Source of the DNA: an uncultured Bacilli bacterium
Lineage (GTDB): Bacteria; Bacillota_I; Bacilli_A; RF39; UBA660
NCBI GenBank assembly: GCA_947623825.1
Contig: CANQHQ010000002.1
Coordinates: 10,124 to 74,123, forward strand
DNA: 64,000 bases
Direction of reading: 5' to 3'
Positions 1 to 25,691 of this stretch are shown piece after piece (the stretch's first letter is position 1; each line of letters opens with the position of its first letter). A program made the translations under genes and the position numbers. The notes beneath the pieces were generated by a model that was not told the DNA's origin, did not search any database, and saw only the letters and a program-made list of their open reading frames with translations.

Positions 1-2
1 GA

Positions 3-275: not shown

Positions 276-296
276 AGGTTGCTTCTTTTTTTTGTT
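262..296 (+). terminator. Rho-independent terminator after rny.
   Basis: Stem AGAAGCAA / TTGCTTCT with an 8-nt loop, followed by a T8 tract (286-293). Confidence 0.5.
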
Positions 297-324
297 GACT
301 TTTTGAGAGAAGTTCATATATACT
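295..324 (+). promoter_or_regulatory. Sigma-A type promoter of the first surface-protein gene: TTGACT, 18-nt spacer, TATACT.
   Basis: TTGACT at 295-300, an 18-nt spacer, then TATACT at 319-324. The same hexamers and spacing recur upstream of the paralog at 13205-13234. Confidence 0.5.
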
Positions 325-435
325 GTAGGCATAGGATAGGAACCGTAAATGCAATTTTTATAAATAGAATACGTGTTTCTTTTTCTTTTTTGGTAAAAAA
401 TAAGGTGCCCTTGTTTTTTAGATGGAGGAAAATTT

Positions 436-3400
436 ATGAACCGTTTTTTTTTAAAGATTCATAAGAATTTGAAATTTGTATCTCTTGGGTTACTAGGCTT
501 TTTTATGATTTGTATGGGGCTTTTGATAAACTCATATGCTTTAAGTGAACCAGTACCCAAGATTTCTTTTTCTTCAAAAACGTTAAGTTATGAAGAGAAG
601 GAACCAGGAAGTTGGCAGGTGGAAAAGAGTGCCGAATGGATTGGATTAGGAAAAGCCAGAATTACTTTTCAAGTCGATACGGTTTTGAAGAAAAAAAATC
701 CGAATACGGATGTTATTCTAGTTCTTGATGTTTCAGCGTCTATGTCAGGAAATAAATTGAATCGAGTGAAAGAAGATTCTATTGATTTAATAGATTCGTT
801 ACTCTCGGATCCTAACAATCATGCCGCATTGATTAGTTTTGATACGGATTCGAAATTGATATCGGATTTTACTAATGATAAAGATGGTTTAATAGAAAAA
901 GTTCGTCTTCTTTCTGAAGAAGGTAATACGAATTATTATCAACCTCTTGTAGATGCGGATGAAATCTTAAAAAAGTATCAAAAGAAAGAGGATACGGATT
1001 GTGTTCTCCTATTCTTGACTGATGGGTATCCTAATGTTGATGTTCCAAATCAAATCGGAGAATATTACTATTTGAAGACAGCTTACCCATGGTTAAATAT
1101 TCATGGAATTCAGTATGAAATGGGAAAAGAAATATTGGATCCAATTAAAGCAATTAGTGACAAACAATTCATTGCGGATATGATTACATTGAGAAATGCT
1201 TTAGTTGATGCCTCTGTTGTGCCGACTCTTTATGATAATTTTATATTAACGGATTGGATTAATAATGACTATTTTGATTTAAAAGATGTTTTGAATATTC
1301 AACCTTCTTTTGGAACAGTAAAATTAGAAGATGATAATGGAGTACCCAAAGTCACATGGGATTTGAGTGGTTTAGGATCAGGTCAGAAGGTTACTTTAAC
1401 GATAGATGTTGAATTAAAGGACAATTCTTATACGGGAAGTGAAATTAATCCAACGAATAAGAAGAGTAACGTCGTTTCTCAAATAGAAGAGGATGAAGAA
1501 GATACTACGGTAACCAACAGTCCAAGCTTAAAAACACATTATAAAGTAATTTATGATGGAAACGTACCAGATGGATGCCGTGTGGATAAGGTACCTGAAG
1601 TAAAAGAGTATGCTGTATATGAGACAGTTGGAAAACATGATGATGTTTTAACTTGTGAGGGATATCAATTCAAAGGTTGGAGAATTGCTACGGACGGGGT
1701 AGGAATTATTAATGATGATTATTTCAAAATGCCAGAGAAAGATGTGACGATTAAGGCAGAATGGGGAAAAATGGGTCTATCAAAAACTATGGATGGGACT
1801 GTTTATAGAGAAATTAGACCGATAATACAAAAAATAGGTGTTGATGGTTATGAAGGTGAGTTGTGGCAATATAAAGAATCTATTACAAAGATAGTAATCG
1901 AAGGAGAGCAAACAACGAAAGATGGTTCTACGGATGAACTTACCTGGGATATTTCGGAAGCCAAAGATGGTTCTGTTCGTGGATTATTGATACCGAATCC
2001 AGAAGACCCTTCTACTTATACTGCTTACATTCAAGGATTAGGTGGAAAAGTAATTGCAAATCCGAATAGTTCTTATTTGTTTGGCGGTGGAGATGGATAT
2101 TCTAATTCATTTTTAAAACTAACCACAATTGAGGGATTAGAATTATTAAATACTTCCCAAGTAACCAATATGAGTCATATGTTTTATAGTTGCGAACCCT
2201 TAATTAGTGTTGGAAATCTAAATGGCTGGGACACTAGTAAAGTAGTAAATATGGACTTTATGTTTCAAGGTTGTCATTCTTTAATAGATTTAAATTTTAT
2301 TAGTGAATGGAATACAAGTCAAGTAACGAATATGAGTCAGATGTTTGATGGTTGTCGTGCTTTGACAAGTTTGGAAGCTATTAGAGAATGGGATACGAGT
2401 CAGGTTACCGATATGAGTTATATGTTTGCTTACTGTTATGCTTTAACAAGTTTGGAAGCTATCAGTGAATGGGACACAAGTCAAGTAACTAATATGAGTA
2501 ATATGTTTTATAGCTGTGATTCTATTGAAAGTCTCGAAGGTATTAGCAAATGGGACACAAGACAAGTATTAGATATGAGTGGTATGTTTATTAACTGTAG
2601 TTTTGAAAGTCTTGAAAGTATTAGCGGATGGGACACAGCTCGAGTAACCAATATGAGTTATATGTTTTCTGGCTGTAATTTTATTGAGAGTCTTGAAAGT
2701 ATCAGCGGATGGGATACAAGTCAAGTAACCAATATGCAGAATATGTTTGAAGAATGTGGTTCTCTAACGGATTTGGAAGGTATCAAGGGATGGAATATGA
2801 GTCATGTAACGAATATGAGTTATATGTTTTCAAAGTGCTATTCCTTATTTGATGTAGATTTGAGTAACTGGAATACTCTCAGTGCGGTAAATATGAGTTA
2901 CTTGTTTTCTAATTGTAATTTTTTAAGAAACTTAAATTTGAGTGGATTGAAAACCGGTCAAGTAACCGATATGCGTTCTATGTTTGAAGAATGTAAAGCT
3001 TTGACTAGTTTGGATTTAAGTAGCTGGGATACAAGTAAAGTAGCCAATATGCGTTATATGTTTTCTGGTTGTAACACATTAACTAATTTAGATTTAAATG
3101 GATGGGACACTGGTCGAGTAACCAATATGGAAAGGATGTTTTATAATTGTATCGCCTTAATTAGTTTGGATTTGAGTGGTTGGGATATCAGTTCGGTATC
3201 AGATTGGGACTTTATGTTTTCTGGAACTACTGGTGAGTTAATCGTAAATAATTGGAAAGTTGGTTTGAGTTTAAATGAAGTTTTTTATAGTTTTAAGGGT
3301 ACCGAAATCAAGGGATTAGATACTTGGGATACAAGTCAGGTAACTGATATGAGCCAGATGTTTCTATTTTGTGATTCCTTGACTAGTATAGAGGGTTTGA

Positions 3401-6342
3401 GCGGATGGAACACAGGTCAAGTAACCAGTATGAGTCAGATGTTTTCTAGCTGTAAATCCTTAACCAGTGTGGGAGATTTAAGTCAATGGGATACGAGTCA
3501 TGTAACCAACATGTGGGAAATGTTTTCTTATTGTAAATCTATCAAATCTTTATCCTTAAGTGGTTGGAAAACAGATCAAGTAACCAGTATGGGTGATATG
3601 TTTGATAATTGTTCATCCTTAATCAGTTTAGATTTAAGCGGTTGGGACACAAGTCATGTAACCGATATGAGTAGTATGTTTATCAGTTGTGGAGCCTTGA
3701 CGAGTTTAGAAGGTATTAGTGATTGGGATACACGCCAGGTGAATAACATGCGCTCTGTTTTTTACGGTTGCCAATCCTTAGTGAAGTTAGATTTAAGTAG
3801 TTGGGATACTAGTGAAGTAACCGCCATGAATGGGATGTTTTCTGGATGTACGTCTTTAGAAAGTATCGGAAATATCGAGAGTTGGGATGTGGGTCGAGTA
3901 ACTGATATGAGTTCCATGTTTTCTGAGTGTCATTTTCTTACTACAACAATTAGTATTTTGAATCCGTTGGTAACTTCTTATTCTAAGATGTTTTATAATG
4001 CAGCGACAACCAATGGTGCCCGAATTATTGTTATTTATTCTAGCGGTTCTCTTGATTTAGTAGAGGAAATGATTGCAACTAAAAATAATGAAAACTCGAA
4101 TGTAATGAAAGGAAACCAACAAGAATATCAAAGTCATTCTATAACAATCCAGGGTAGAAATGACATTGTTTCTTCACAATCATCTGCATTCCCATATGTT
4201 GAAATTAAGTTAACGTCGAATCAGGATCATAAATTGATAACTTCCTTTGAGATGAATGGAACTCCAATGGAAGGAAATACTTTCAAGATGCCGAATAAAG
4301 ATGTGATTATTACCAATGTAACGGTTGTGGATGGATGGGAATCAGAACATAATCCGTATGGTGATAATTTGAATGAGGTCTATGAAGCAACGTTTGAAGG
4401 AGCCGGAAGTTTGACTATTATGTTACACTATTCTACAGATGAAGATTATATCTATCTATATGATCGTACTGGCAAACAATATGGGGAATATGAAGGATGG
4501 ATGAATGCGGGAGACATTATCATTATTCCGGGAGATTACGTAAAACTTAATTTTGTTACCAATGGAAGTTTCAATGAACTTTACGGTTTTCAGGCTATTA
4601 TTACTCCTAATGCACCTCATTCTGTTGAATTAAAATCTCCACCATATGATATTGGTTTGAGTAACGATTCGCCTGTATTAGGGGATACAGTGGAGTTAGT
4701 GTCACCTTCAGAAAATTATGTGGTGACATCGTTTAAAATGAATGGTACTTTGGTAGAGGGAGACTCCTTTGTGATGCCAGACGAGGATGTAGAGATTTCC
4801 GATATTATAGCAGTGAAAGGAAAAATTCTTGAGTCAGAGCATTATCCATATGGTGGTAATTTGAATGAAATCTATGAAGCAACATTGGATGGTGCGGGAA
4901 GTTTGACCGTTACTTTAGATTATCAACTCTATGGTTATGGCGATATTTATGGTGATAGTATTTATTTATATGATAAGTTAGATAACAGATATGATATAGA
5001 TGGAATTCATGACGGAACAAGTAACAGAAAAACGACAACGATCGTTATTCCAGGAGATTATGTAAAATTAAATTTTGTTACAGATGACGATTACAATAGT
5101 TATTATGGCTTTAGGGCAATTGTGATTTATAATGAATCTCATCCTATCACGGTAGAATCTCCACCGTATGATATTGTTGCTAATCAAACCTCGACTGGAT
5201 TAGGAGATACAGTGAAGTTGGTATCGCCATCTGGAAAATATGCCGTAACGTCATTTCGAATGAATGGTACTTTGGTAGAGGGAAATTCCTTTATAATGCC
5301 AGACGAACCGGTAACAATTTCAGATATTGAGGCGTTTGAAGGTGCAATTTTTGAATCGGATCATAATCCGTATAAAAATAATCTCAATGAATCATATGTG
5401 AAAAAATTTGCGGGAGCTTCTTCCTTAACAGTCACTCTAGAATACCAGACGGAAACGGACTTTGACTGGGTTTACTTATATGATAAATCCGGAGTGGAAC
5501 TTGGTAAGTATGGAGGTTCGACAAGAACAACGGAAACCATAGTGATTCCAGGAAACTATGTTAAGATTGTTTTTTATACTGATTCCGCCACGAATGCATA
5601 CTATGGATTTAAAGCGGTTATAACGGTTAATGAACCTCATTCTGTTACCCTAGAATCTTCGGTGTATGATATTGTTGCGAATAAGGAACAGACCTCATTA
5701 AAGGACACAGTAACACTGGTGTCGTCCTCTGGAAATTATAGAGTTGTATCGTTTAAAATGAATGGAAAAGAGATACAAGGAAATACGTTTGAAATGCCGG
5801 ATGAAGAAGCTAAAATTACAGATATTGTCGTAGAAAGTAGACATTCGATTGTGGTTACGGGAAATGAGGATATTGAAGCACATCCAGACTCTGCTTTTGT
5901 AGGAGATACTGTGACGTTATCATCTGTTTCTGGAAATAATCTAGTAACTTCGTTTGACATGAATGGAAGTAAGGTGGAAGGAAATTCCTTTGTGATGCCG
6001 GATGGATCCGTATCCATTTCTAACATTGTGGTAGTACAAGGCTTTGCTTTTGAATCTAGTCATAACTCCTATGACAATAATCTAAACGAAGAGTACGAAA
6101 AGACCTTTGCGGGGGCTACTTCTTTGACTGTTACCTTGGAGTATCAAACCGAAGGTATCAATTGGGATTATATTTGTTTATATGACAGAGTTGGAACAGA
6201 GCTTGGAAAGTACGGAGGACATATGAAGAAAACAGAAACGATAGTGATTCCTGGTGAATATGTGAAGATTTTATTCCATACGGATTCTTCTATCAATGAA
6301 TACTATGGCTTCAAAGCAACTATCGTTCCTAATTATGGATAA
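436..6342 (+). CDS. Giant surface protein of 1968 aa. It has an N-terminal signal-anchor TM, a vWA domain (DVILVLDVSASMSG, a DxSxS MIDAS motif), about 20 WDTSQVTNMSxMFxxC repeats (DUF285/BspA-like LRR) and four C-terminal CUB-like repeats.
   Basis: Long uninterrupted ORF with RBS GGAGG at 425-429. The MIDAS motif, the DUF285 repeat periodicity and the CUB-like repeat pattern (LNExYE..F.GA.SLT..L.YQTE...YLYD..G...G.YG.....TIVIPG.YVKL.F.TD....YGFKA) are read directly from the translation. Confidence 0.9.
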   Translation: MNRFFLKIHKNLKFVSLGLLGFFMICMGLLINSYALSEPVPKISFSSKTLSYEEKEPGSWQVEKSAEWIGLGKARITFQVDTVLKKKNPNTDVILVLDVSASMSGNKLNRVKEDSIDLIDSLLSDPNNHAALISFDTDSKLISDFTNDKDGLIEKVRLLSEEGNTNYYQPLVDADEILKKYQKKEDTDCVLLFLTDGYPNVDVPNQIGEYYYLKTAYPWLNIHGIQYEMGKEILDPIKAISDKQFIADMITLRNALVDASVVPTLYDNFILTDWINNDYFDLKDVLNIQPSFGTVKLEDDNGVPKVTWDLSGLGSGQKVTLTIDVELKDNSYTGSEINPTNKKSNVVSQIEEDEEDTTVTNSPSLKTHYKVIYDGNVPDGCRVDKVPEVKEYAVYETVGKHDDVLTCEGYQFKGWRIATDGVGIINDDYFKMPEKDVTIKAEWGKMGLSKTMDGTVYREIRPIIQKIGVDGYEGELWQYKESITKIVIEGEQTTKDGSTDELTWDISEAKDGSVRGLLIPNPEDPSTYTAYIQGLGGKVIANPNSSYLFGGGDGYSNSFLKLTTIEGLELLNTSQVTNMSHMFYSCEPLISVGNLNGWDTSKVVNMDFMFQGCHSLIDLNFISEWNTSQVTNMSQMFDGCRALTSLEAIREWDTSQVTDMSYMFAYCYALTSLEAISEWDTSQVTNMSNMFYSCDSIESLEGISKWDTRQVLDMSGMFINCSFESLESISGWDTARVTNMSYMFSGCNFIESLESISGWDTSQVTNMQNMFEECGSLTDLEGIKGWNMSHVTNMSYMFSKCYSLFDVDLSNWNTLSAVNMSYLFSNCNFLRNLNLSGLKTGQVTDMRSMFEECKALTSLDLSSWDTSKVANMRYMFSGCNTLTNLDLNGWDTGRVTNMERMFYNCIALISLDLSGWDISSVSDWDFMFSGTTGELIVNNWKVGLSLNEVFYSFKGTEIKGLDTWDTSQVTDMSQMFLFCDSLTSIEGLSGWNTGQVTSMSQMFSSCKSLTSVGDLSQWDTSHVTNMWEMFSYCKSIKSLSLSGWKTDQVTSMGDMFDNCSSLISLDLSGWDTSHVTDMSSMFISCGALTSLEGISDWDTRQVNNMRSVFYGCQSLVKLDLSSWDTSEVTAMNGMFSGCTSLESIGNIESWDVGRVTDMSSMFSECHFLTTTISILNPLVTSYSKMFYNAATTNGARIIVIYSSGSLDLVEEMIATKNNENSNVMKGNQQEYQSHSITIQGRNDIVSSQSSAFPYVEIKLTSNQDHKLITSFEMNGTPMEGNTFKMPNKDVIITNVTVVDGWESEHNPYGDNLNEVYEATFEGAGSLTIMLHYSTDEDYIYLYDRTGKQYGEYEGWMNAGDIIIIPGDYVKLNFVTNGSFNELYGFQAIITPNAPHSVELKSPPYDIGLSNDSPVLGDTVELVSPSENYVVTSFKMNGTLVEGDSFVMPDEDVEISDIIAVKGKILESEHYPYGGNLNEIYEATLDGAGSLTVTLDYQLYGYGDIYGDSIYLYDKLDNRYDIDGIHDGTSNRKTTTIVIPGDYVKLNFVTDDDYNSYYGFRAIVIYNESHPITVESPPYDIVANQTSTGLGDTVKLVSPSGKYAVTSFRMNGTLVEGNSFIMPDEPVTISDIEAFEGAIFESDHNPYKNNLNESYVKKFAGASSLTVTLEYQTETDFDWVYLYDKSGVELGKYGGSTRTTETIVIPGNYVKIVFYTDSATNAYYGFKAVITVNEPHSVTLESSVYDIVANKEQTSLKDTVTLVSSSGNYRVVSFKMNGKEIQGNTFEMPDEEAKITDIVVESRHSIVVTGNEDIEAHPDSAFVGDTVTLSSVSGNNLVTSFDMNGSKVEGNSFVMPDGSVSISNIVVVQGFAFESSHNSYDNNLNEEYEKTFAGATSLTVTLEYQTEGINWDYICLYDRVGTELGKYGGHMKKTETIVIPGEYVKILFHTDSSINEYYGFKATIVPNYG
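2158..4020 (+). repeat. Array of coding repeats, each about 72-75 bp (24-25 aa), inside gene 436-6342. They are DUF285/BspA-like leucine-rich repeats.
   Basis: The motif W[DN]TSQVT[ND]MSxMFxxCxSLxSLEGIS recurs about 20 times with similar codons. Confidence 0.7.
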
Positions 6343-6421
6343 GTTATCTAAAAAAACTTGCATGAACACTTTTTAAACTGTATACTGAAAGAAAGTAAAT
6401 AGATTCTATGGAGGTGGAAGA

Positions 6422-7033
6422 ATGAAAAAAATTCCAAAGAAAAATTTAATTATTATCGCAAGTATTTGTTTTGTATGTTCTATTATATTGTTTATTTCAG
6501 CATCTTATTCTTATACGGATGGACAACTTCCTACACCGATTAGTGATGATGGAAATGTCACTTATGAATTATGTAAAAAAGATGGAACTTGTATGCCAGA
6601 AGGAAGAGTTTATGTTGGTAGAGAAGTAGGAAATATTCAAAATCATTTAGATTATACAGCCACTTATGATAGTGAAATTTCTTATGATTACGACTATTAT
6701 GTAAAAGGAAAAATTGTTTATAAAGATGGAAATGGAAATGTCGTTCATGAGGAAGAAGAAATGCTAAATGATAGTCAAAAAGTTACTGGAACTGGTACTT
6801 CTTTTCAAATTCAAAGCGAGGTTACGGTTACTTATTCTGATTATTATGAAAAGGCCAATAATTCTCTTTCCAGTCATGGAGGAGTTACGGCAGACTTAGA
6901 AATTTCCTTGGTTTTGAAAAAACTTGATATGGAAGAAGTGGTGGCGACCGTTCGTTATCCTTTGAAAGAGGATATGTTTACCGTTACGAAAGAAGTTGTT
7001 TCGAGAAGAGTTGGACAGGAAGAAAAGAAATAG
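6422..7033 (+). CDS. Membrane-anchored hypothetical protein of 203 aa, with an N-terminal TM and an extracellular domain.
   Basis: RBS GGAGGTGGAAG then ATG. Hydrophobic N-terminus (IIIASICFVCSIILFISA). No recognisable motif. Confidence 0.65.
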   Translation: MKKIPKKNLIIIASICFVCSIILFISASYSYTDGQLPTPISDDGNVTYELCKKDGTCMPEGRVYVGREVGNIQNHLDYTATYDSEISYDYDYYVKGKIVYKDGNGNVVHEEEEMLNDSQKVTGTGTSFQIQSEVTVTYSDYYEKANNSLSSHGGVTADLEISLVLKKLDMEEVVATVRYPLKEDMFTVTKEVVSRRVGQEEKK

Positions 7034-7066
7034 AAGAAGGAGGAGGAACTCCTTCTTTTCTTTGAA
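7034..7066 (+). terminator. Rho-independent terminator.
   Basis: Stem GAAGAAGGAG / CTCCTTCTTC followed by a T-rich run. Confidence 0.5.
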
Positions 7067-7092
7067 ATCCTACTTGTAACTTTTTCTTTATT

Positions 7093-8037
7093 TTGATATA
7101 TTTATATAGAATAGAAAGGATGATTTCTATGTTTAGTGAAGATCAAGTCTTAGAAAAAGTTTCCAATAAAAAACAAAAACAAATTTTAATCTTTATTATC
7201 GCAATCTGCATCTTTCTTATTGTTGTTTTATTGGTATCTATGTATTTTTATATGGATAATCAACCTTTGATTAGTTTTCCTACTTATCAGTTATCCACAG
7301 AAGAGTGGACAACGGATAATGTGATGATTGAAATTACGAATGATAGTAAGAATATTCAATCTTATTCTTTTGATGGAGGAAAAACTTGGCAAACGAATTC
7401 TACTTATGAAGTAACAGAAAATGGAGAATATGAAATTCAAGTTATGGATATAAAGAATAAGTTAAGTAAGAAGAATCTTGTTGTTGTATCGAATATTGAC
7501 CGTACTCCTCCTACGATGGTGTTTGAAAGTTCTACGACGATACAAATGGGTTCTAATTTTACTCCTTCTTATGGCGTACAAGTATCTGATAAAGAATCGG
7601 GCTTAAGTAATAATTATACAGCAGTTCCTAGTTCGATTGATACCAGTGTCGAAGGAGAATATAAAATTACTTATTCGGCATTCGATCGTGCGGGAAACTT
7701 TGTAGAAAAAGAAAGAACCATTATCGTAAAAGATATTAAAGGTAGAACGTATTATCGTTATCGTGAAGGAACGATTGAGTCTTACGAGTGTGAACCGTAT
7801 CTTTGTCGTTGTGTTTCTTCGAATCTTGCTTCTTCTACAGGAACTTGTCCTACTGGATATACTTTAAATGATGAAGGTCAATGTTGTAACACTTGTTATA
7901 AGACTTGTACGAAAACCAATTGGGGAGAATGGAGTAAGTGGGATCAAAAAAAGGTGACTGCTACTCCTACTCGTGAAGTAGAAAGTATTCTTGTTGAGGA
8001 TGGACAAGAATTAGAAGGGGTGACGGATCAACGATGA
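7093..8037 (+). CDS. Membrane-anchored protein with an Ig-like (DUF5011-like) domain and a C-terminal Cys-rich module that ends in a WGEWSKW tryptophan motif. The start may instead be at 7120 or 7129.
   Basis: TM helix ILIFIIAICIFLIVVLLVSMYF. Segment NIDRTPPTMVFESST..YGVQVSD..SG..NYTA.PSSIDTSVEGEYKITYSAFDRAGN resembles bacterial Ig-like/DUF5011 domains. There are 11 Cys in the last 90 aa. It is paralogous to the next gene. Confidence 0.7.
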   Translation: MIYLYRIERMISMFSEDQVLEKVSNKKQKQILIFIIAICIFLIVVLLVSMYFYMDNQPLISFPTYQLSTEEWTTDNVMIEITNDSKNIQSYSFDGGKTWQTNSTYEVTENGEYEIQVMDIKNKLSKKNLVVVSNIDRTPPTMVFESSTTIQMGSNFTPSYGVQVSDKESGLSNNYTAVPSSIDTSVEGEYKITYSAFDRAGNFVEKERTIIVKDIKGRTYYRYREGTIESYECEPYLCRCVSSNLASSTGTCPTGYTLNDEGQCCNTCYKTCTKTNWGEWSKWDQKKVTATPTREVESILVEDGQELEGVTDQR

Positions 8038-8933
8038 AACAGAAAGTAACGTATCAGGGCCCTATTGATCAATATGGTCGCCCTCTAGAGAATAGGGGAA
8101 ACAAGAATGGCTTGGGAGAGAATCAGAGATTAGGAACCATGATCTTCACTGCTTTGGGTATCGCTCTTATTCTTATTGTAATTGGTTTATTTGTTTATAA
8201 TTATATTTCTCAGAATCGTTTGGAGATTCCAACGGCTTCTCTTTCTACGACAGAATGGACCAATGAGTCAGTGACAGTCACTGTAGATCAAAGTCGTGGA
8301 AAAGGAAACGAATATTCTTTTGATGATGGAAAAACTTGGCAAACGCAAAATACGTTTGTGGTAGATGAAAATCAAGAATTGGTGTTACGAGTACGTAATT
8401 CCAAAGGAAAAGTAAGTAAGCCAGCGACGGTTATTGTTTCAAATATTGATAAAGAGGATCCAGAACTTTATTTTATTTCTCCTTATTATATACAGGTAGG
8501 TTCTACCTTTGATGGAAAATTGAATGTTTCTGCAGATGATTTAGGTTCTGGTATTGAAACCTATACGATTGATACTTCTCGTTTGGATATGAATGTCCCA
8601 GGTACGTATGAAGTTTCTTATCTTCTTACGGATTTGGTTGGTAATACAACAAAGAAGGTCCGTACGGTTGTCGTTCATGAGGGTGAAAAGAATTATTTTT
8701 ATCGTTCTCGTTCTGTAGAATTTGGAGAATCCGATTGTCCTTATGAATGTGAATGTGTTCCTCCTACAGATGGGCTTTGTCCCGCAGGAAAACACGTTTC
8801 AGAAGATAAGACGCAATGTTGTGAAACTTGTACGGAAAAGTGTGAACAATTTACATATGGAAATTGGTCAGAATGGAGTAGTGTACGAATGATTCCATCT
8901 AGTCAATTAGAAGTAGAAATGCGTATGGAATAG
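8034..8933 (+). CDS. Paralog of the preceding gene: TM anchor, Ig-like (DUF5011-like) domain and a Cys-rich C-terminal module with a GNWSEWS motif.
   Basis: ATG overlaps the upstream stop (ATGA). Shares FDDGKTWQT, a VSNID..PP motif and the CP..C.C...C......CC.TC..C cysteine pattern with 7093-8037. Confidence 0.7.
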   Translation: MKQKVTYQGPIDQYGRPLENRGNKNGLGENQRLGTMIFTALGIALILIVIGLFVYNYISQNRLEIPTASLSTTEWTNESVTVTVDQSRGKGNEYSFDDGKTWQTQNTFVVDENQELVLRVRNSKGKVSKPATVIVSNIDKEDPELYFISPYYIQVGSTFDGKLNVSADDLGSGIETYTIDTSRLDMNVPGTYEVSYLLTDLVGNTTKKVRTVVVHEGEKNYFYRSRSVEFGESDCPYECECVPPTDGLCPAGKHVSEDKTQCCETCTEKCEQFTYGNWSEWSSVRMIPSSQLEVEMRME

Positions 8934-8975
8934 GGGTAATCCCTTTTTCTTTTTTTTGGTAGAAAGGAGGATTCT

Positions 8976-11327
8976 ATGGACGAGTACCGGAAAGTAATGC
9001 GAATTCGTTATCATCAAAAACTTTTTGATGTTTATGTCGACGATAGGCATCGTAAGACTTTTTTAGAAGTTCGAGACGATGAAAATTTCTGTCGAAGTCT
9101 TTATCCCTATTTGGATGATTATCTTTCATTGTACGTGAAAATGAATTTTCCTTCTCATATTCTTTATTCCAAAAAATTTCGCTTTCCTAAAAAAGTCTTT
9201 TTTCGAGAAGAAAAGAAACCTACACTACGAAAAGTGGCCGGAACTTTGGGAATGGTTTTATCTTTTGAAATTTTAGGAGCGATTCTCTGTCTCAATCCTA
9301 AATTTCAAAAAAGTATGATGTCTTTTGGAACGGTTTCTTCGTTGGATGAGGAAATAGATAGGGAAATTTCTTATGATACATATGATGGTTCTATTTTTCA
9401 TATCGATGAAATCGCTTCTCTTTCTGAATTTGGAATGGAACCGGTTTCTTTTTATGAAGTACGAAAGACATTAGAAGAAAATATCAACCTTTCTCCTCGT
9501 TTTAAGGAGGAAGCCCGTCTTTTCCTTGATCGATTAGAAGAACGATTCCCACAAGTGGATCTTCGTATTTTGAATCAAAATTTAAAAAAGATGTACGATG
9601 AAATCAATCCATCTTATCCATTGAAAAGAGGAGATGGATTGATGACTGGTTCGTTTTCTCCTTCCTTGGGAAAAGTTTCTTTAGAAGAAAATTATTCTGA
9701 AATGACTGCTTTTCATGAATTGTGTCACGCCTTAAATTCTTTTATTGGAGAAATTTCTTCTTCTAGTTCTTCGGATACGTATCAGATTCATTACTTTTTC
9801 CGAAAAGATTCCTATGGAGAAAGTTTTGTGGAAAGTATGAATACGATTTTAGCGGATTATCTTTTAGCGGAAGATTGGAAGAATTATTTTACTCCTACGG
9901 AAAGAACGTATTCTTCTTATCGTAGTATTTCTTATGAAACGTATCAATTATTGAAACTATTAAAAGGGTATTCTCTTACGGATTTTGTGAATCGAAATGT
10001 GTCTTACTTCGAAGAACAATTGAAAAAAGTTCATTTAGAAGAATATATCGATTATTTAGATACTTTTTATCGTGCGGAATATACCGATATGGAAGTAGTG
10101 GATACGAAGGATTCTTTGAAAGAGGAGTTACAGCATTCTCTTTTAAAGCAAAGAATTCTTGAAGAATGTGGTGATACCGTTACGCCAACGATGGTTTATC
10201 GAATGGCAGGAGCGATTCATCTATGTGAAGACCAAAAACTTGATATTTGTAATGAAATATTAGAGGAGGATGGGCAGGTTTGGTTATTCCGAACGCCTTC
10301 TTCGCCTTTTTATGATGAGGATTCCGATTCTTATGCTTATATTTATCAGGGGGAAGAAAAGATTTTTCAAGGAAAACAGAATGATATTTATATTTACAAA
10401 AGTGTAGAAGAGAATCATACGGTTTTTCATATGGCTTATTATGAGAATGAACAAAGAAAATATTATGATTTGGTAGAAAAAAAAGAGATTGATTTTCCTT
10501 CTTCGATTCTCTATCCGATTCCGTTAAATTCCGTTTGTGGATGGTTCCATATCGATGATTCTCATTTGGATTTTAGTATGGATGTGTTAAAGGAACCTTC
10601 TTTTATCAGTTATTTGAATTCTGAAACGAGAGAGGTACGGTTATATAATCAGGATTCTTTATTGTCACGAGAAAAAGTTGATTCTTTGTATTGGTATAAA
10701 AATTTTGATTCCAAGATGCCGTATTCTTTGACTTCCTATGATTCTTTGAATGATCTTTATTGTGATTATTTTACGAAGAAACCCATTGATTATAAAAAAC
10801 TAGGACCAGTTCGTTCTTTTTGGAATACGATTTATCAGTATACAAATTTTACTTTTGAAGAAGAGGGTACTTTTTCTTCTAGTGACTCGTCTAAAACTTT
10901 AATTCAAAAAGAAAAAAACAGTTACGATTTACGAGTAGATATTCAATTATTACAGGATGTGTCTTTTCTTCATTTTTTGGATCAATGTGCCCCTATTTCG
11001 ATTAATTTTTACGATGGAAAAGAAGTCAAATACTGTTTTGATATCAATCAGATTTTCTTGTATGATGCGTCTTTACAAGGACCATCTCAAATTCGATTTG
11101 GATACTACGATTATGAATCTACTTCTGATGTTGATTTTCTAACTGGAAAACCAGTCGATGTCGATTGCCTTGGTTCCATTAAATATTTTAATGAAATCGT
11201 CGATGCAGGTAGCGAAGATTTAGAGTTTGATTTATCTTCTCTTTCGCAATATCCATTATTGGAATATTACCATTCTTCGGTAGAGGATTTTTCTCTTTCT
11301 ATTCCTAAGATCAAACAAAAAGATTAG
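8976..11327 (+). CDS. Membrane-anchored 783-aa protein with an HExxH motif (FHELCH). It is a putative zinc metallopeptidase-like protein of an unrecognised family.
   Basis: RBS AGGAGG before ATG. Single TM at about aa 88-106 (VAGTLGMVLSFEILGAILCL). HELCH is encoded at 9714-9728. Confidence 0.7.
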   Translation: MDEYRKVMRIRYHQKLFDVYVDDRHRKTFLEVRDDENFCRSLYPYLDDYLSLYVKMNFPSHILYSKKFRFPKKVFFREEKKPTLRKVAGTLGMVLSFEILGAILCLNPKFQKSMMSFGTVSSLDEEIDREISYDTYDGSIFHIDEIASLSEFGMEPVSFYEVRKTLEENINLSPRFKEEARLFLDRLEERFPQVDLRILNQNLKKMYDEINPSYPLKRGDGLMTGSFSPSLGKVSLEENYSEMTAFHELCHALNSFIGEISSSSSSDTYQIHYFFRKDSYGESFVESMNTILADYLLAEDWKNYFTPTERTYSSYRSISYETYQLLKLLKGYSLTDFVNRNVSYFEEQLKKVHLEEYIDYLDTFYRAEYTDMEVVDTKDSLKEELQHSLLKQRILEECGDTVTPTMVYRMAGAIHLCEDQKLDICNEILEEDGQVWLFRTPSSPFYDEDSDSYAYIYQGEEKIFQGKQNDIYIYKSVEENHTVFHMAYYENEQRKYYDLVEKKEIDFPSSILYPIPLNSVCGWFHIDDSHLDFSMDVLKEPSFISYLNSETREVRLYNQDSLLSREKVDSLYWYKNFDSKMPYSLTSYDSLNDLYCDYFTKKPIDYKKLGPVRSFWNTIYQYTNFTFEEEGTFSSSDSSKTLIQKEKNSYDLRVDIQLLQDVSFLHFLDQCAPISINFYDGKEVKYCFDINQIFLYDASLQGPSQIRFGYYDYESTSDVDFLTGKPVDVDCLGSIKYFNEIVDAGSEDLEFDLSSLSQYPLLEYYHSSVEDFSLSIPKIKQKD

Positions 11328-11368
11328 ATGCTTTGGAAAACATCTAATCTTTCTTTATTGATCGATTT

Positions 11369-13051
11369 TTATTTTTTTATATCGATGATGACAGGAAGAA
11401 TAATTGGTCTTCGACCGGTGACCTCTTCCGTAAAGTTGATTAGTTCACTGATTAATTTACTTTTTAGTTCATTGATTTCGTCTTTTGTATTCGTTAGGAA
11501 ATCGTTGATGATTTCGGTAGCGGTTGTTTCAATTTGTTTAATTAATTCTTCGTTTTCGTTTACCAAAATAAATCCTCTCGTTGTAATATTTGGTTTAATG
11601 AGTAATTTTCTTTTTGAAAAATCAATATTTGCGATGACAACAAGGATTCCATCGTTAGACATCATCTTTCGATCACGAATGACAACGCCACCTACTTCTC
11701 CAATTCGATTTCCATCGACGTAGACATCTTCTCCTGATACTTTTTCTCTCGACTTGGTAATGACATGATCTTTTAATGTTAAGACATCTCCATTTTCGAG
11801 AACAAAAGTATTTTCTTTCGGAATTCCACAATCAATGGCGATATTGGCATGTTTTTTCAACATCCGGTAGTCTCCATGGAACGGCATCACATATTTTGGC
11901 ATAATCAGACGAATCATGAGTTTTAGTTCTTCTTCATTCGCATGCCCTGAAGTATGCAAATCCCCATCAAATGTACTATTTGTGAATACTTGAATTCCTT
12001 TTAAATATAATTTGTTGATTGTTTTGGCAATCGATAAGGCGTTTCCTGGAATAGGGGAAGAAGAGAAAATCACAATATCATCTGGTCTAAGTGATACTTG
12101 TTTGTGTGTTCCATCTGCAATTCTAGATAAAGCAGCCAAAGGTTCTCCTTGGGAACCGGTACATAAAACAGTAACTTCTCCTGGTTTCAATGTATTGGCT
12201 ACTTCTGGAGTGATGATTAATTCTTTATGATTGATATATCCTCCATTAATTGAAATTTGGATGTTGTTTTCCATACTTCTTCCGAAAATACAAATTTTAC
12301 GATTGTGTTTGTAACAAGTTTCAAAAATGTGTTTTAGGCGATAAATATTAGAGGCGAATGTGGCAATAATGATTCGACGATTTGGATACTGATTAAAAAT
12401 ATCCATCATTGTATCATCGACTTTGGATTCGCTAATCGACATTCCTTCATTGAGGGCATTGGTCGAGTCACTAATTAATAAATCTACTCCTCTTTTTCCT
12501 AACTCAGCCATTTTATGTAAATCAGCCATCGGTCCAATCGGAGTCAAATCAAATTTAAAGTCTCCGGTTGTGACAACACTTCCATTTGGTGTTTTTAGAT
12601 ATACACCATGAGAGTCTGGAATCGAGTGAGTGGTTCTAAAAAATTCAATTTCAAAATTCTTTAATTTAATTTTTGTTTTATCATCATACGCATAAAGATG
12701 GTCATAACGAATATTTCGGTCTTCTAATTTTAAAGCAATTAATTCCTTTGCTTGATTTGGTGCGTAAATCGCAGGGATTTCCACTGTTTGAAGTAAAAAA
12801 GGAATACTTCCGATATGATCTTCGTGACCGTGCGTAATGATTAAACATTTTATTTTGGATTGATTTTCTTTTAAAAAGGTAAAATCCGGTAGAACATAGT
12901 CAATTCCTAATAGTTCTCCTTCTGGGAAACTAATTCCCGCATCGATAATAACAATTTCGTCTCCATGCATTAAACAATACATGTTTTTTCCAACTTCGCC
13001 TAAACCACCTAAAACAATAATCTTTGTTTCAATTGGTTTATTAAACTTCAT
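11369..13051 (-). CDS. rnj: Ribonuclease J (metallo-beta-lactamase/beta-CASP RNase).
   Basis: Motif IITHGHEDHIGSIPFLL. 560 aa, which fits RNase J length. Conserved N-terminus MKFNKP..TKIIVLGGLGEVGKNMY. Confidence 0.9.
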   Translation of the reverse strand: MKFNKPIETKIIVLGGLGEVGKNMYCLMHGDEIVIIDAGISFPEGELLGIDYVLPDFTFLKENQSKIKCLIITHGHEDHIGSIPFLLQTVEIPAIYAPNQAKELIALKLEDRNIRYDHLYAYDDKTKIKLKNFEIEFFRTTHSIPDSHGVYLKTPNGSVVTTGDFKFDLTPIGPMADLHKMAELGKRGVDLLISDSTNALNEGMSISESKVDDTMMDIFNQYPNRRIIIATFASNIYRLKHIFETCYKHNRKICIFGRSMENNIQISINGGYINHKELIITPEVANTLKPGEVTVLCTGSQGEPLAALSRIADGTHKQVSLRPDDIVIFSSSPIPGNALSIAKTINKLYLKGIQVFTNSTFDGDLHTSGHANEEELKLMIRLIMPKYVMPFHGDYRMLKKHANIAIDCGIPKENTFVLENGDVLTLKDHVITKSREKVSGEDVYVDGNRIGEVGGVVIRDRKMMSNDGILVVIANIDFSKRKLLIKPNITTRGFILVNENEELIKQIETTATEIINDFLTNTKDEINELKSKLISELINFTEEVTGRRPIILPVIIDIKK

Positions 13052-13204
13052 AAAGTCTCCTTTCGTTTTCTATTTTTTTTGGGTCGGAAAGAACTAACCG
13101 ATATGATTATACTAAAAAATAGAGAATTTGTCTATTCTTTTCCTATGTTAATTCCTATTTGACATGATTTATCTTACTCCGCTTGCACCGTGATAAACTC
13201 TATG

Positions 13205-13234
13205 TTGACTTTTCAAGGCGGGGGGGGGTATACT
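13205..13234 (+). promoter_or_regulatory. Promoter of the paralogous surface-protein gene: TTGACT, an 18-nt spacer containing a G9 homopolymer, then TATACT.
   Basis: TTGACT at 13205-13210, spacer tttcaaggcGGGGGGGGG, TATACT at 13229-13234. Same hexamers and spacing as the promoter at 295-324, but with the poly-G inserted. Confidence 0.55.
13220..13228 (+). repeat. Homopolymeric G9 tract inside the promoter spacer.
   Basis: Nine consecutive G directly visible. This is extremely unusual in a sequence of about 33% GC. Confidence 0.9.
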
Positions 13235-13354
13235 AAGAATAGGAGAAAACTAGGAACCGTAAAGGATGGAAGATTTGTATATTTTCTCCTGAGCGTGTTC
13301 CTTTTTTGTAGAAAAAAATGCTCCTTGTTTTTATAATGGAAGGAAGAATGTTGA

Positions 13355-16297
13355 ATGAAAAAAACGTTTCTTTGGATTCATAAAAGAATTGGAGTTCTTA
13401 CGATTGGTTTATTGGCTGTTTTCATGATTGGAATAGGGCTTTTGATGAATTCTTATGCCTTAAATGAACCTGTACCCAAGATTATTTTTTCATCCCAAAC
13501 GTTAAGTTATGAAGAGAATGATTCAGGAAGTTGGAAAGTTGACAAGAGTGCCGAATGGATTGGCGAAGGAAAAGCGAGAATTACCTTTCAAGTTGATACG
13601 GTTTTAAGAACAGGAAATCCAAATACAGATGTCATTTTAGTTCTTGATATTTCAGGGTCTATGTCGGGAAATAAATTAGAGCGCGTGAAACAGGATTCTA
13701 TCAATTTATTAGATTCCTTATTATCGAATCCTAATAATCAAGCAGCATTGATTACATTCGATACAGGATCAGTATTGGTATCGGATTTTACTAATGATAA
13801 GGACAGTTTAATAGGAGAGATAAATCATTTAGAAGCTATAGGAACTACTAATTATTATCAACCGCTTGTCCATGTAGATGAGATTTTAAAAGACTATTCC
13901 AAGAAAGAAGATACAGAGTGTGTTGTTTTATTCTTAACGGATGGATATCCGAATGAGGATATTCCGAATCAGATAGGAGAATACAAATATTTAAAAAGTG
14001 AATATTCATGGTTAAATATTCATGGAGTACAGTACGAAATGGGAGAAGAGGTTCTAGATCCTATCAAAAAAGTTAGTGATAAGCAATTTATTGCGGATAT
14101 GACTACGTTGAACAATGTCTTGTTTGATGCTTCTGTTCTACCTATTCCTTATGACAAGTTTATATTAACGGATTGGATTCATAATGAATATTTTGATTTA
14201 AAGGAGATTTCGAATATCCAACCTTCTTTTGGGGAAGTAAAGTTGGAAGATGATAACGGAGTACCCAAAGTGACATGGGATTTAAGCGGTTTAGTGGCAG
14301 GACAAGGTGCCACGTTAACGATAGATATTGATTTAAAAGGAGATTCTTACACAGGAAGTGAAATTAATCCAACCAACAAGAGTAGTGAAGTGGTTTCTCA
14401 AATAGATGGGGATAAAGAAGATGTTACAACAAAGGAAAGTCCTAGTTTAAAAACACATTATAAAGTGATTTACGATGGAAATGCCCCAAGTGGATGTAGT
14501 GTAGGTGAGGTACCTGAAGCAAAAGATTATGCTGTATACGAAACAGTCGGAAAAAGTGATGCAGTTCCTATTTGTGAAGGTTATCAATTTAAAGGATGGG
14601 AAATTGTAACAGAAGAAGTGAAACAACTGAATGGTGACTATTTTCAAATGCCTGAGAAAGATGTAACATTACGAGCAGAATGGGGAAGAATGGGATTATC
14701 GAAGTCTGTGGAAGGAGAAGTTTATGTCCAAAAAGATCCAATTCTTCAAAAAATAGATTCTGATAGTTATAATAAAGAACTTTGGAAATATAAAAATTCT
14801 ATTACGAAGATAGTCTTTGAAGGGGAACAGACGTCAAAAACAGGTTCTACAGAGGAACTTACTTGGGATATTTCAGAAGCAAAAGATTGGTCGGTACGAG
14901 GATTATTGGTACCGAATTCAGATGATTCTTCGACTTATACTGCCTATATTCAAGGCTTGGAAGGAAGAGTGATTGCGAACTCAGATAGTTCTTACTTATT
15001 TGGTAGCAAAAGTTCTTCTACGTCATTTACAAAGTTAACGGCAATTGAGGGACTAAAGTTATTGGATACAAGTCAAGTAACCGATATGGCTTTTATGTTT
15101 TGCCATTGTGAATCCTTAACCAGTGTTGGAAATATAAGTGGCTGGGACGTGAGACAAGTAACCGATATGGCTTATATGTTTAGTTATTGTTATGCCTTAA
15201 CCAGTTTAGATTTAAGTGGCTGGAACACAAGTCGAGTAAAAGGTATGAGTTATATGTTTATGTATTGTAAAGTCTTAACCAGTGTTGGAGGTATAAGTGG
15301 CTGGGACACACGTCAAGTAACTGCTATGTATTTTTTGTTTGATGGTTGTAGCGCCTTAAAAAGTTTAGATTTAAGTGGTTGGAATACAAGTCTAGTAACC
15401 AATATGGGTGGTATGTTTTCCAGTTGTTCATCCTTAACTAGTGTAGGAGATTTAAGTGGTTGGGAAACCGGCCAAGTAACCAATATGAGTTTTATGTTTG
15501 ATGATTGTGAAGTCTTAACCAGTGTAGGAGATATAAGTGCCTGGGACACACGTCGAGTAACCAATATGAGTTCTATGTTTACTCGGTGTTACGTTTTAAC
15601 TACAACGATTAGTATTTTAAGTAATTCGGTGGCTAGTTATGATTTGATGTTCTATTCTGCTGCTACTAAAAATAATGCCAAGATTACCGTTAATTATTCT
15701 AGTGAATCAGAAGCATTAGTGAATCAAATGATTGCAACAAAGTCTGATGGTTGTAATGTGGTAAAAGCAAGTAGTCCGTATGTGGCACATTCCGTAACGA
15801 TTCAAGGTAGAAATGACATTATTGCGACTCCATCAAATGGAATGATGTTTACCAGAATTACGTTAACTCCAATCAATGAGGATTATATGGTTACTTCATT
15901 TGAAATGAATGGAACGAAAATAGAAGGTAATACCTTTGTTATGCCGAATGGGAATGCCATGATTACGAATGTAACTACTGGAGTGGGAACAGTGTTTGAG
16001 TCTAACCATAATCCATATGATAATAACCTAGATGATGAGTATGAACATACCTTTGAAGGCGCTACTTCTTTGACCGTTACGTTGGAGTATCAAACGGAAG
16101 AACCGGATGAATCGATGTATGATTGGATTGCCTTGTATGATAGAACTGGAAAAGAGTATGGTAAATATGGAAGAGAAACAAAAACAACAGAAACCATCGT
16201 CATCTCAGGAGATTACGTTAAACTTTTATTTCATACGGATGAGTTTGTAGATGGTTACTATGGATTCAAAGCCACTGTGGTCCCAAATTATGAATAA
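13355..16297 (+). CDS. Paralogous surface protein of 980 aa: signal anchor, vWA (DVILVLDISGSMSG), about 7 DUF285-type repeats and one C-terminal CUB-like domain.
   Basis: N-terminal 560 aa is about 75% identical to gene 436-6342. Same repeat motif WDTRQVTxMxxMF. C-terminus YGFKATVVPNYE matches the C-terminus of the first paralog. Confidence 0.9.
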   Translation: MKKTFLWIHKRIGVLTIGLLAVFMIGIGLLMNSYALNEPVPKIIFSSQTLSYEENDSGSWKVDKSAEWIGEGKARITFQVDTVLRTGNPNTDVILVLDISGSMSGNKLERVKQDSINLLDSLLSNPNNQAALITFDTGSVLVSDFTNDKDSLIGEINHLEAIGTTNYYQPLVHVDEILKDYSKKEDTECVVLFLTDGYPNEDIPNQIGEYKYLKSEYSWLNIHGVQYEMGEEVLDPIKKVSDKQFIADMTTLNNVLFDASVLPIPYDKFILTDWIHNEYFDLKEISNIQPSFGEVKLEDDNGVPKVTWDLSGLVAGQGATLTIDIDLKGDSYTGSEINPTNKSSEVVSQIDGDKEDVTTKESPSLKTHYKVIYDGNAPSGCSVGEVPEAKDYAVYETVGKSDAVPICEGYQFKGWEIVTEEVKQLNGDYFQMPEKDVTLRAEWGRMGLSKSVEGEVYVQKDPILQKIDSDSYNKELWKYKNSITKIVFEGEQTSKTGSTEELTWDISEAKDWSVRGLLVPNSDDSSTYTAYIQGLEGRVIANSDSSYLFGSKSSSTSFTKLTAIEGLKLLDTSQVTDMAFMFCHCESLTSVGNISGWDVRQVTDMAYMFSYCYALTSLDLSGWNTSRVKGMSYMFMYCKVLTSVGGISGWDTRQVTAMYFLFDGCSALKSLDLSGWNTSLVTNMGGMFSSCSSLTSVGDLSGWETGQVTNMSFMFDDCEVLTSVGDISAWDTRRVTNMSSMFTRCYVLTTTISILSNSVASYDLMFYSAATKNNAKITVNYSSESEALVNQMIATKSDGCNVVKASSPYVAHSVTIQGRNDIIATPSNGMMFTRITLTPINEDYMVTSFEMNGTKIEGNTFVMPNGNAMITNVTTGVGTVFESNHNPYDNNLDDEYEHTFEGATSLTVTLEYQTEEPDESMYDWIALYDRTGKEYGKYGRETKTTETIVISGDYVKLLFHTDEFVDGYYGFKATVVPNYE

Positions 16298-16298
16298 A

Positions 16299-16342
16299 AA
16301 AGAAGATGATTTTACTTGGATTTCATCTTCTTTCTTTTTTTT
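16299..16342 (+). terminator. Rho-independent terminator.
   Basis: Stem AAGAAGATGA / TCATCTTCTT with a 13-nt loop, followed by a T-rich tract. Confidence 0.6.
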
Positions 16343-16441
16343 CTTGTGGAATGAATTGATAAAATTCGCAGAAAATTCCTTTGGAAAGACTAGGAAATCC
16401 TCTTTTTTTTTGGTATACTTATCTATGATACAGGAGGATTT

Positions 16442-17527
16442 ATGGGACTATTTCAAAAGATTAAAGATATGTTTAAAGGAAATACTACTTCCTTTGATGA
16501 TAAAAATGAGATTCCAGTACAAGAAAAAGAAGAAGAAATAGGGGAAAACGAAGAAGAAAATGTCGAAATTGAGGAAGAACAGGAAACAGTTTCTCCTAAG
16601 AAGGAAGTCAAAATTTATGAGAAAGGACTTACGAAAAGTAGGAAGGGATTCGTTTCTAATTTAATGAGTTTAACGAGTCGCTATTCCAAGGTGAATGAGG
16701 AATATTTTGACGAGTTAGAAGAAATTTTGATTATGGCAGATATCGGAGTTCATACCGTGATGTCTTTTATGGATCGATTACGTGATAGGGTACGGAAGGA
16801 AAAAATAGAAAATCCGGAAGATTTGAGAGAAATCATTGTCGATGAATTATTCATTATTTATGTTGATGATTCTATTATGACAAACAAGATTCATTATGCG
16901 GAAAGTGGACCGACGGTTTTACTTTTTGTTGGAGTGAATGGAGTAGGGAAAACGACCACCATTGCCAAACTTGCATGGAAATTGAAAGAAGAAGGAAAAA
17001 AAGTTTTATTGGTAGCGGGGGATACCTTTCGTGCGGGTGCGACGAAACAATTAGAAGAGTGGAGTCAAAAAGTAGGGGTCGATTTCGTTGGAAAAGAAGA
17101 AGGTGCGGATCCGGCATCGGTTGTCTTTGATGGATTGAAGAAAGCTAAAGCAGAAGATTATGATGTCGTTTTTATCGATACAGCAGGTCGATTACAAAAC
17201 CGTGTGAATTTAATGAATGAACTAGAAAAAATCAATCGTGTGATTGCACGGGAAGTAGAGGGTGCTCCTCATGAAACGCTTTTGGTACTGGATGCCACAA
17301 CGGGACAAAATGGAATTAGTCAAGCGAAAAAGTTTAAAGAAATTACGAATGTTACTGGAATTGTCTTGACGAAGTTGGATGGTACTGCCAAAGGAGGAAT
17401 TGTGCTTGCGATTAAAGAAGAAGTACAACTTCCGGTTAAGTATATTGGTTTAGGAGAAAGAAAAGAAGATTTACAACCGTTTGATATAGAAAAGTATATT
17501 TATGGACTTTTTAAAGACATGATGTAG
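16442..17527 (+). CDS. ftsY: Signal recognition particle receptor FtsY.
   Basis: SRP GTPase motifs GVNGVGKTTTIAKLA and DTAGR. Acidic N-terminal region. RBS CAGGAGG. Confidence 0.9.
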   Translation: MGLFQKIKDMFKGNTTSFDDKNEIPVQEKEEEIGENEEENVEIEEEQETVSPKKEVKIYEKGLTKSRKGFVSNLMSLTSRYSKVNEEYFDELEEILIMADIGVHTVMSFMDRLRDRVRKEKIENPEDLREIIVDELFIIYVDDSIMTNKIHYAESGPTVLLFVGVNGVGKTTTIAKLAWKLKEEGKKVLLVAGDTFRAGATKQLEEWSQKVGVDFVGKEEGADPASVVFDGLKKAKAEDYDVVFIDTAGRLQNRVNLMNELEKINRVIAREVEGAPHETLLVLDATTGQNGISQAKKFKEITNVTGIVLTKLDGTAKGGIVLAIKEEVQLPVKYIGLGERKEDLQPFDIEKYIYGLFKDMM

Positions 17528-17535
17528 GTGAGATT

Positions 17536-22995: not shown

Positions 22996-23075
22996 TAGAA
23001 GTGGTTTCACTTCTTTTTTCTTTGATAAATTTTCAGACTATAGTATAATACTAGTTGATACAAGGAGGGATAAAC

Positions 23076-25684: not shown

Positions 25685-25691
25685 AAAAATT

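Follow-up and report, generated by a model that had tools for sequence, protein, structure and literature searches.

Old adhesin-like vWA-PARCEL-CUB paralogs around the RNase J gene of an uncultured gut Bacilli member, one with a probable contingency promoter

The locus described here spans positions 436-16297 of a 64-kb stretch of contig CANQHQ010000002.1 (the window, ~34% GC). The DNA comes from an uncultured gut member of the Bacilli, related to mycoplasmas and near Candidatus (Allo)scybalousia, Candidatus Onthousia and Clostridium sp. CAG:451; the organism probably belongs to order RFN20 of GTDB. Coordinates refer to the plus strand of the window unless stated otherwise. Two very large open reading frames (ORFs), gene A (436-6342, 1968 amino acids [aa]) and gene B (13355-16297, 980 aa), both with extents confirmed by ORF calls, lie between the end of rny (3-275) and the start of ftsY (16442). 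They are separated by four ORFs co-oriented with them (6422-7033, 7093-8037, 8034-8933 and 8976-11327) and by the core gene rnj, encoding RNase J, which occupies 11369-13051 on the minus strand between the last of these ORFs, that of an HExxH protein, and gene B. An earlier note on this DNA had described the intervening ORFs as a membrane protein, two Cys-rich immunoglobulin (Ig)-like proteins and an HExxH protein, a description with which the ORFs, Pfam matches and motif agree.

Genes A and B share one architecture, in which a hydrophobic N-terminal signal or anchor is followed by an Ig-like region with a vWA domain, a B-repeat, an array of PARCEL/DUF285 units and a tail of B-repeat-like and CUB-fold modules. 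The vWA domains (709-1050, aa 92-205 in A; 13628-13987, aa 92-211 in B) exceed the Pfam gathering scores in both proteins (VWA_2, 52.9 and 57.4 bits; VWA, 38.9 and 47.2 bits). Each has the metal ion-dependent adhesion site (MIDAS) pattern DxSxS...T...D, formed in B by D98, S100, S102, T165 and D196. Across 56 aligned homologs the first four of these residues do not vary, and D196 is conserved in at least 90%. A divergent InlB B-repeat (Pfam Flg_new_2) is over threshold in B, and a match to GBS104-like_Ig in the head is sub-threshold. A structural model of B residues 1-560 (predicted local distance difference test [pLDDT] 86.3) comprises a long N-terminal helix, an Ig-like sandwich bearing the vWA domain, the B-repeat and the start of the leucine-rich repeats. 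Its best PDB matches are the pilus tip adhesins Mfa5, PitA, SpaC, RrgA and GBS104 (Foldseek E values 7e-21 to 3e-12; top entries 6to1, 7w6b, 6m3y, 2ww8 and 3txa).

Behind the head, DUF285 (PF03382) scores 500.9 bits in A and 159.1 bits in B against a cut-off of 25, and the NCBIfam PARCEL model TIGR02167 scores 522 bits over 21 stretches and 172 bits over six stretches, respectively, against a cut-off of 30. The vWA and DUF285 calls of the earlier note are thereby borne out in both genes. By motif count, with a period of 26-27 aa, A contains 22 units, arranged in a block of 14 (2134-3273) and a block of 8 (3313-3975) either side of a cap-like break at ~aa 935-960, and B contains seven (15050-15634). 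The array of B, together with its C-terminal cap and tail, is collinear with block 2 of A and not with block 1 (BLASTP). The numbers therefore differ between the genes as had been claimed (roughly 20 versus 7 DUF285 units, 4 versus 1 CUB-like domains), except that A has 22 units. Both proteins terminate in the same YGFKAT[IV]VPNY sequence, also as previously noted.

The tail of A (4135-6339) consists of four pairs of a small InlB B-repeat-like beta domain and a domain of ~100 aa, with a lone B-repeat-like domain before the last pair. Five B-repeat-like domains, an addition to the earlier description, thus accompany the four CUB-like segments (4336-4617, 4825-5139, 5347-5637 and 6046-6339). In B the tail (15788-16294) is a single pair, B-repeat-like at 15788-15991 and CUB-fold at 15992-16294. 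An AlphaFold2 model of the B tail (pLDDT 89.7) matches CUB domains of TSG-6, C1s, neuropilin, C1r and MASP-1 in the PDB (Foldseek; TM-score normalized to target length [TMt] 0.57-0.72, root-mean-square deviation 2-3 Å). A profile built from the five window modules retrieved 1268 representative proteins (E ≤ 1e-3); sampled matches include strong scorers for Pfam CUB (129 bits in P0150, and 74 bits), which also place CUB domains in bacterial surface proteins, and others that join the module to DUF285, BspA-type leucine-rich repeats, Big_2/3, fn3 or vWA. The term "CUB-like" thus holds, on the model and the transitive profile link, as a statement of fold and distant homology, although the PF00431 hidden Markov model itself stays under its gathering score. 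When mapped onto C1s by eye, D44 of the module is invariant and a Glu and a second Asp are kept in most copies, so that a Ca2+-binding triad is plausible in most of them. Of 139 sequences retrieved as relatives of the vWA head, gene B itself alone had the CUB-type tail, and a word-based search with the tail returned just three close fragments. A and B are therefore true mosaics of shuffled modules.

The sole hydrophobic stretch of either protein lies at residues ~11-37, where the N-terminal helix is a putative signal or membrane anchor. Near the C-termini of A and B there is no LPXTG-like motif and no hydrophobic segment, and the proteins stop in the last CUB strand. Both are predicted to be exported, and we infer a location at the cell surface; the domains likewise suggest a role in adhesion or host interaction. 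As modeled, the heads are tip-adhesin-like, yet the proteins are not sortase substrates.

A and B share 72% aa identity over their N-terminal 565 aa and 75% nucleotide identity over aligned positions 383-2676 and 13298-15589, promoter and leader included, and are thus true paralogs with similar N-terminal halves, as the earlier note had it. Because nucleotide homology reaches positions 383 and 13298, upstream of the genes, the duplication took in the promoter and 5' leader. It was not recent. Synonymous divergence (dS) between A and B is 0.93 and nonsynonymous divergence (dN) 0.18, and the corresponding values between B and a third paralog, C, are 0.54 and 0.13 (dN/dS ~0.2). Nucleotide identity between A and B per 100 nucleotides (nt) is even, at 55-87%, with no identical run longer than 22 nt. 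Recent duplication of units within the arrays can be ruled out, given that no two PARCEL units exceed 79% nucleotide identity. By these measures the copies separated long ago and evolve under purifying selection, with nothing in their sequences pointing to gene conversion. The suggestion that shared blocks allow conversion or recombination between copies consequently lacks support, with no conversion tracts visible and an identity that never rises above 87% per 100 nt. The idea of duplication followed by repeat expansion or contraction agrees with the paralogy and with a change in unit number described below, the duplication being old.

Paralog C lies outside the window, downstream of dnaG-rpoD-trmK, in sequences (P0002 and P0003) from the same sample series as contigs with an rnj 100% identical to that of the window. 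Its identity is 72-77% with B and 65-68% with A, and it has at least 13 PARCEL units. The frame of C is broken within its PARCEL array (L084:3660-3690), with at least six further units in another frame, which, at 2.5x coverage, might reflect either misassembly or a genuine frameshift. The family as a whole has more than 500 members; an exact look-up had no record of gene B, and a word-based search returned it as P0001. Local duplication within it recurs, as a relative (BRZ_BB NODE_37, L003:10001-16106) bears two tandem vWA-family genes of 959 and 1060 aa in an unrelated context.

To place these genes in their neighborhood, the window proteins were compared by tblastn with 80 loci chosen by RNase J (72-90% identity), which do not include the window species itself, and the DNA was aligned with that of the four closest relatives. 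All 80 loci come from uncultured gut "Bacilli/Tenericutes" metagenome-assembled genomes, including Candidatus (Allo)scybalousia, Candidatus Onthousia and Clostridium sp. CAG:451 (the NCBI name "Candidatus Scybalousia" is a homonym, and the Bacilli genus is now Candidatus Alloscybalousia). In most of these genomes, rny and rnj are convergent neighbors. The nearer clade has one Ig-like gene between them and the closest relatives have two; homologs of Ig-like protein 1, at 49-73% identity, occur in L004-L028 and L045. By tblastn, none of the 80 loci has gene A, the 203-aa gene or the HExxH gene. Gene B was also counted absent, and the rnj-ftsY gap of L005 bears a vWA-DUF285 gene that is 41% identical. 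In some relatives that gap is void of genes (186-630 bp). Otherwise, the gaps around rnj in relatives hold Laminin_G_3 proteins, ALK/LTK glycine-rich proteins with F5/8C domains, and low-complexity giants whose Pfam matches are spurious. Large exported proteins are encoded there at L020:12737-15439, L029:3498-6098, L020:4344-9818 and L023:7631-9826, one of them with a triple Laminin_G_3.

Three stretches of the window, 304-7072, ~8934-11345 and ~13154-16441, have no counterpart in the four closest relatives. Homology with L007 ends at ~303, and the left edge of the first stretch adjoins the intrinsic terminator of rny (259-290). The supposed cassette therefore breaks down into long-established residents, the Ig-like genes, and three additions that entered independently: first, gene A together with the 203-aa gene; second, the HExxH gene; and third, gene B. 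Sequence alignment thus speaks against the view that the paralogs bracket a cassette, as does the location of C elsewhere, but agrees with the view that the locus is variable among relatives, whose gaps around rnj hold differing large proteins. On this history, accessory genes were added in three different intergenic places around rnj, in a neighborhood that turns over and whose large secreted proteins differ between relatives.

The promoters of A (295-324), B (13205-13234) and C are homologous sequences with the common form TTGACT-N18-TATACT. The spacer of A has no homopolymer; that of B contains, in its 3' half, a G9 homopolymer (13220-13228) confined to this copy, A and C having mixed G/A at the same place. 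This is the sole G/C run of at least 8 in the window; the second-longest, a G7 run at 29210-29216, lies near the 3' end of an ORF at 28474-29226. In a contig from another sample (L002), otherwise identical over 4.5 kb, the tract reads G13 where the window reads GGCG9, which gives a 19-nt spacer. Slippage of the tract would alter the 18-nt spacing common to the three paralog promoters, and transcription of gene B should then switch ON/OFF. A contingency role for the tract is likely, and contingency regulation probably applies to at least this one copy. Of the earlier claim of a phase-variable promoter on gene B, the position of the tract between -35 and -10 and the different length in another sample stand, although the length change comes from one contig.

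Similar tracts recur among the relatives. Their loci (1.275 Mb) contain seven G/C runs of at least 9 against 0.14 expected, a ~50-fold excess. The six runs examined (9-11 G; L013:532-541, L030:4383-4391, L052:17510-17520, L069:17928-17936, L071:16185-16194 and L072:16813-16822) each precede, by 85-170 nt, an ORF whose product begins with a signal-like sequence and matches no family in Pfam or NCBIfam, and several fall between -35-like and -10-like hexamers. Orthologous tracts differ by one G (G9 in L069 versus G10 in L072; G11 in L052 versus G10 in L071). The L030 tract sits in the rny-rnj gap. A SipW/TasA-type signal was considered for the proteins behind the relatives' tracts and dropped for want of NCBIfam support.

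The 5' leaders of the paralogs are conserved as well. That of A (325-435) shares the exact 13-mer TAGGAACCGTAAA with that of B and contains a hairpin and T-run before the ribosome-binding site; that of B (13235-13354) is conserved with those of A and C. The leaders of both A and B have a further hairpin, which pairs with the ribosome-binding site. Folding z-scores are modest (-2.1 for B, and only ~-2 for the leaders overall), and an Rfam scan found no family in the leaders. The hairpin and T-run might act as an attenuator. A hairpin and T-run between the -10 element and the ribosome-binding site was also observed at L084:1294-1415 and in the leaders of L030, L052, L069, L071 and L072.

Variation within the species was assessed in eight low-coverage contigs (seven from ENA, one from Logan) from at least five other samples. 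One of them, L092, is identical to the window either side of a 159-bp deletion (15075-15233) that removes exactly two PARCEL units in frame and yields a five-unit variant of gene B. The junction falls in the 7-mer ACAAGTC, present at 15068-15074 and 15227-15233. The 7-unit form is found in L090 and L091, and the C-terminal modules of A are unchanged in L086-L089. The earlier expectation that repeat number can change thus finds support in one contig, and PARCEL units lost or gained now and then, whole and in frame, would provide a second source of variation beside the promoter tract.

Between A and B, the 203-aa protein (6422-7033), inserted together with gene A, has an N-terminal hydrophobic segment; between it and gene A there is no terminator consensus. 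Ig-like Cys-rich membrane proteins 1 (7093-8037, with a start probably at ~7129 according to gene calls) and 2 (8034-8933, present in the closest relatives) are paralogs with Bact_surface_Ig-like domains (PF16403; 41.5 and 30.5 bits), each with an N-terminal anchor and a Cys-rich tail of 8-9 Cys. The C-terminal ~90 aa of both contain a WGEWSKW or WSEWS motif reminiscent of thrombospondin type 1. A thrombospondin-type repeat was nevertheless dropped as an assignment for these tails, which had no Pfam TSP_1 match and only weak CC and IGFBP matches. The 783-aa HExxH protein (8976-11327) has a hydrophobic segment at ~aa 88-108 and the motif FHELCH (nt 9714-9728). Only three distant homologs were found (27-30% identity); all four proteins, the window protein included, have FHELCH and a Glu located 35 residues downstream; elsewhere, a homolog adjoins gatCAB. 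We regard it as a putative membrane-anchored zincin. Neither this protein nor the 203-aa protein had a match in Pfam, NCBIfam or PDB sequence searches. A palindromic terminator-like hairpin (11317-11354) lies between the convergent HExxH gene and rnj, which has a promoter-like site at 13134-13106 on the minus strand. From the stop of gene B to the start of ftsY (16298-16441) there is neither promoter nor terminator consensus, so that ftsY, an essential gene, may be read through from the promoter of gene B or have a non-consensus promoter of its own. Further along the window, a full-length OLE (Ornate Large Extremophilic) RNA at 59466-60055 is the sole Rfam match (RF01071; 370 bits against a gathering score of 50), and GC content shifts from ~0.34 to 0.44 at 22-24 kb and then to 0.24-0.28 at 24-28 kb (22000-28000).

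Taken together, the data favor, with somewhat better than even confidence, the reading that A and B, with at least one further copy, are old paralogs in a lineage-specific family of exported surface proteins, accessory and adhesin-like, at a locus built by three insertions, and that they vary by poly-G slippage and change in PARCEL unit number and not by exchange between copies. Antigenic variation through conversion or reciprocal exchange between A and B, resulting in mosaic adhesins, might have been expected from their common architecture, promoter, leader and repeated modules, and one contig does show a change in unit number. However, that deletion lies inside gene B at a 7-nt microhomology and not between the genes, contigs from no fewer than five other samples align collinearly with the window, and an even ~75% nucleotide identity with no conversion tracts, a longest shared run of 22 nt, a dS of 0.93 and unit identities never above 79% leave this explanation largely refuted. 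It is improbable, too, that the whole of 436-16297 is one functional system, for instance a module for assembling, processing or secreting adhesins, with the HExxH protein responsible for their maturation. Such a system would suit a block of six co-oriented genes, each encoding one N-terminal hydrophobic segment, with no terminator consensus after gene A and with a conserved HExxH motif. Against it, the Ig-like genes occur in many relatives that have no A, B, 203-aa or HExxH gene, HExxH homologs are found beside gatCAB, paralog C has none of these neighbors, the vWA-DUF285 genes of relatives lie in unrelated contexts, and core rnj on the opposite strand divides the block.

Several observations weigh against the reading we favor. 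Both polymorphisms come from single contigs of ~3x coverage (2.9x for L002, from which alone the G13 reading derives, and 3.1x for L092); Illumina sequencing is prone to errors in G homopolymers, and a chimeric read could account for the L092 junction. All other overlapping sequence from the species is 99.85-100% identical and collinear, so that the sampled population appears little variable. The overlap includes positions 3243-6342 of gene A and 14307-16297 of gene B, but not 436-3242 (the A head and first array). Scans of JGI metagenomes with the B promoter pattern and the B N-terminus gave no match to the species, which is why tract-length and repeat-number variation were examined in the eight contigs only. 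With regard to architecture, PF00431, the sole Pfam family on the C-terminal modules, reaches 17.5 and 19.0 bits in two of them against a threshold of 21.4, and one further module had no PF00431 match in a direct Pfam scan. A and B could be ordinary accessory surface proteins with constitutive expression, the G-tract difference and the 159-bp deletion being artefacts of sequencing or assembly and G9 having no regulatory role, and the window allele does retain the 18-nt spacing of its paralogs. We consider this unlikely, for the tract is unique in 64 kb of 34% GC DNA and falls exactly within a promoter spacer, and the relatives' tracts are strongly enriched upstream of signal-bearing ORFs and differ in length between orthologs in independent assemblies. 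Moreover, the deletion removes exactly two units and preserves the frame, and a de Bruijn misjoin would need an overlap longer than 7 nt.

Under the preferred reading of old paralogs with a contingency promoter, the Ig-like and vWA head with its complete MIDAS would act as an adhesin-like tip, the PARCEL/DUF285 leucine-rich solenoid as a stalk or second binding surface of variable length, and one to four CUB-fold modules would lie at the far end. The function of the proteins could then be metal-dependent binding of host or other extracellular ligands. More tentatively, we speculate that, across this whole lineage of uncultured gut Bacilli without sortases and perhaps without a cell wall, poly-G tracts in sigma-70 promoter spacers serve as a contingency device to switch diverse, fast-turnover exported proteins (among them vWA-PARCEL-CUB adhesins assembled from animal-like domains: vWA, CUB, LamG, F5/8C and ALK-type glycine-rich) whose genes are inserted preferentially beside core genes, rny, rnj and ftsY for example, with the conserved hairpin/T-run leader adding further control. 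Bacilli of the RFN20 type, though uncultured, are common in the guts of humans and animals, and the locus indicates for at least one of them that it encodes exported proteins of very large size, whose heads are adhesin-like and which have no sortase signal. A published genome survey of RFN20 and related orders reports that sortases have been lost, as has peptidoglycan in some families, and infers "reduced surface protein expression" from the missing sortases (PMC10868615). The family of A and B would be a sortase-independent alternative to set beside that inference, and its members are concrete candidates for attachment of bacteria to host or particles. The length of the poly-G tract offers a simple marker that could be tracked in deep metagenomes.

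As in the vWA tip adhesins RrgA, GBS104, SpaC and PitA, and Mfa5 of type V pili, a MIDAS vWA domain is set among Ig-like domains. Unlike the tip adhesins, A and B have no LPXTG motif or C-terminal anchor, and the PARCEL array and CUB modules replace the pilin stalk. Pfam and NCBIfam scans found no sortase or pilin domain in any gene of 1-17600, and order RFN20 has been reported to lack srtA/B (PMC10868615). The C-terminal modules resemble CUB domains of C1s, C1r, MASP, TSG-6, neuropilin and bacterial CUB surface proteins in fold and in a consensus-like sequence pattern, but are sub-threshold, lack the disulfide cysteines and are each preceded by a small B-repeat-like domain. Homopolymers in the spacer are known from phase-variable promoters such as the poly-A of vlp in Mycoplasma hyorhinis and the poly-C/G of opc and porA in Neisseria. 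In these, as in gene B, the homopolymer lies between -35 and -10 so that a one-base change shifts the spacing, whereas the B tract is known from the sequence of two alleles alone, in a lineage with no cultured member.

A and B also resemble PARCEL proteins, whose repeats are established parts of membrane proteins that vary, in Mollicutes as in other microbes (Roske et al. 2010, PMC2996958). With PARCEL surface proteins of the Mollicutes and Firmicutes such as LppQ and MCAP_0268, A and B share membrane targeting and tandem 25- to 27-aa amphipathic repeats in variable number. PARCEL proteins are likewise accessory and patchily distributed, and some of the Mycoplasma PARCEL lipoprotein genes bear homopolymer or dinucleotide contingency tracts in their 5' flanks (PMC2996958). 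In A and B, by contrast, the array is set between a vWA/Ig head and a CUB-fold tail, the N-terminus is a plain hydrophobic signal or anchor and not a lipoprotein signal, the tract of B is a poly-G inside the -35/-10 spacer, and the host belongs to an uncultured gut lineage. The locus is therefore a further case of a known type of variable surface protein and not a new system or mechanism.

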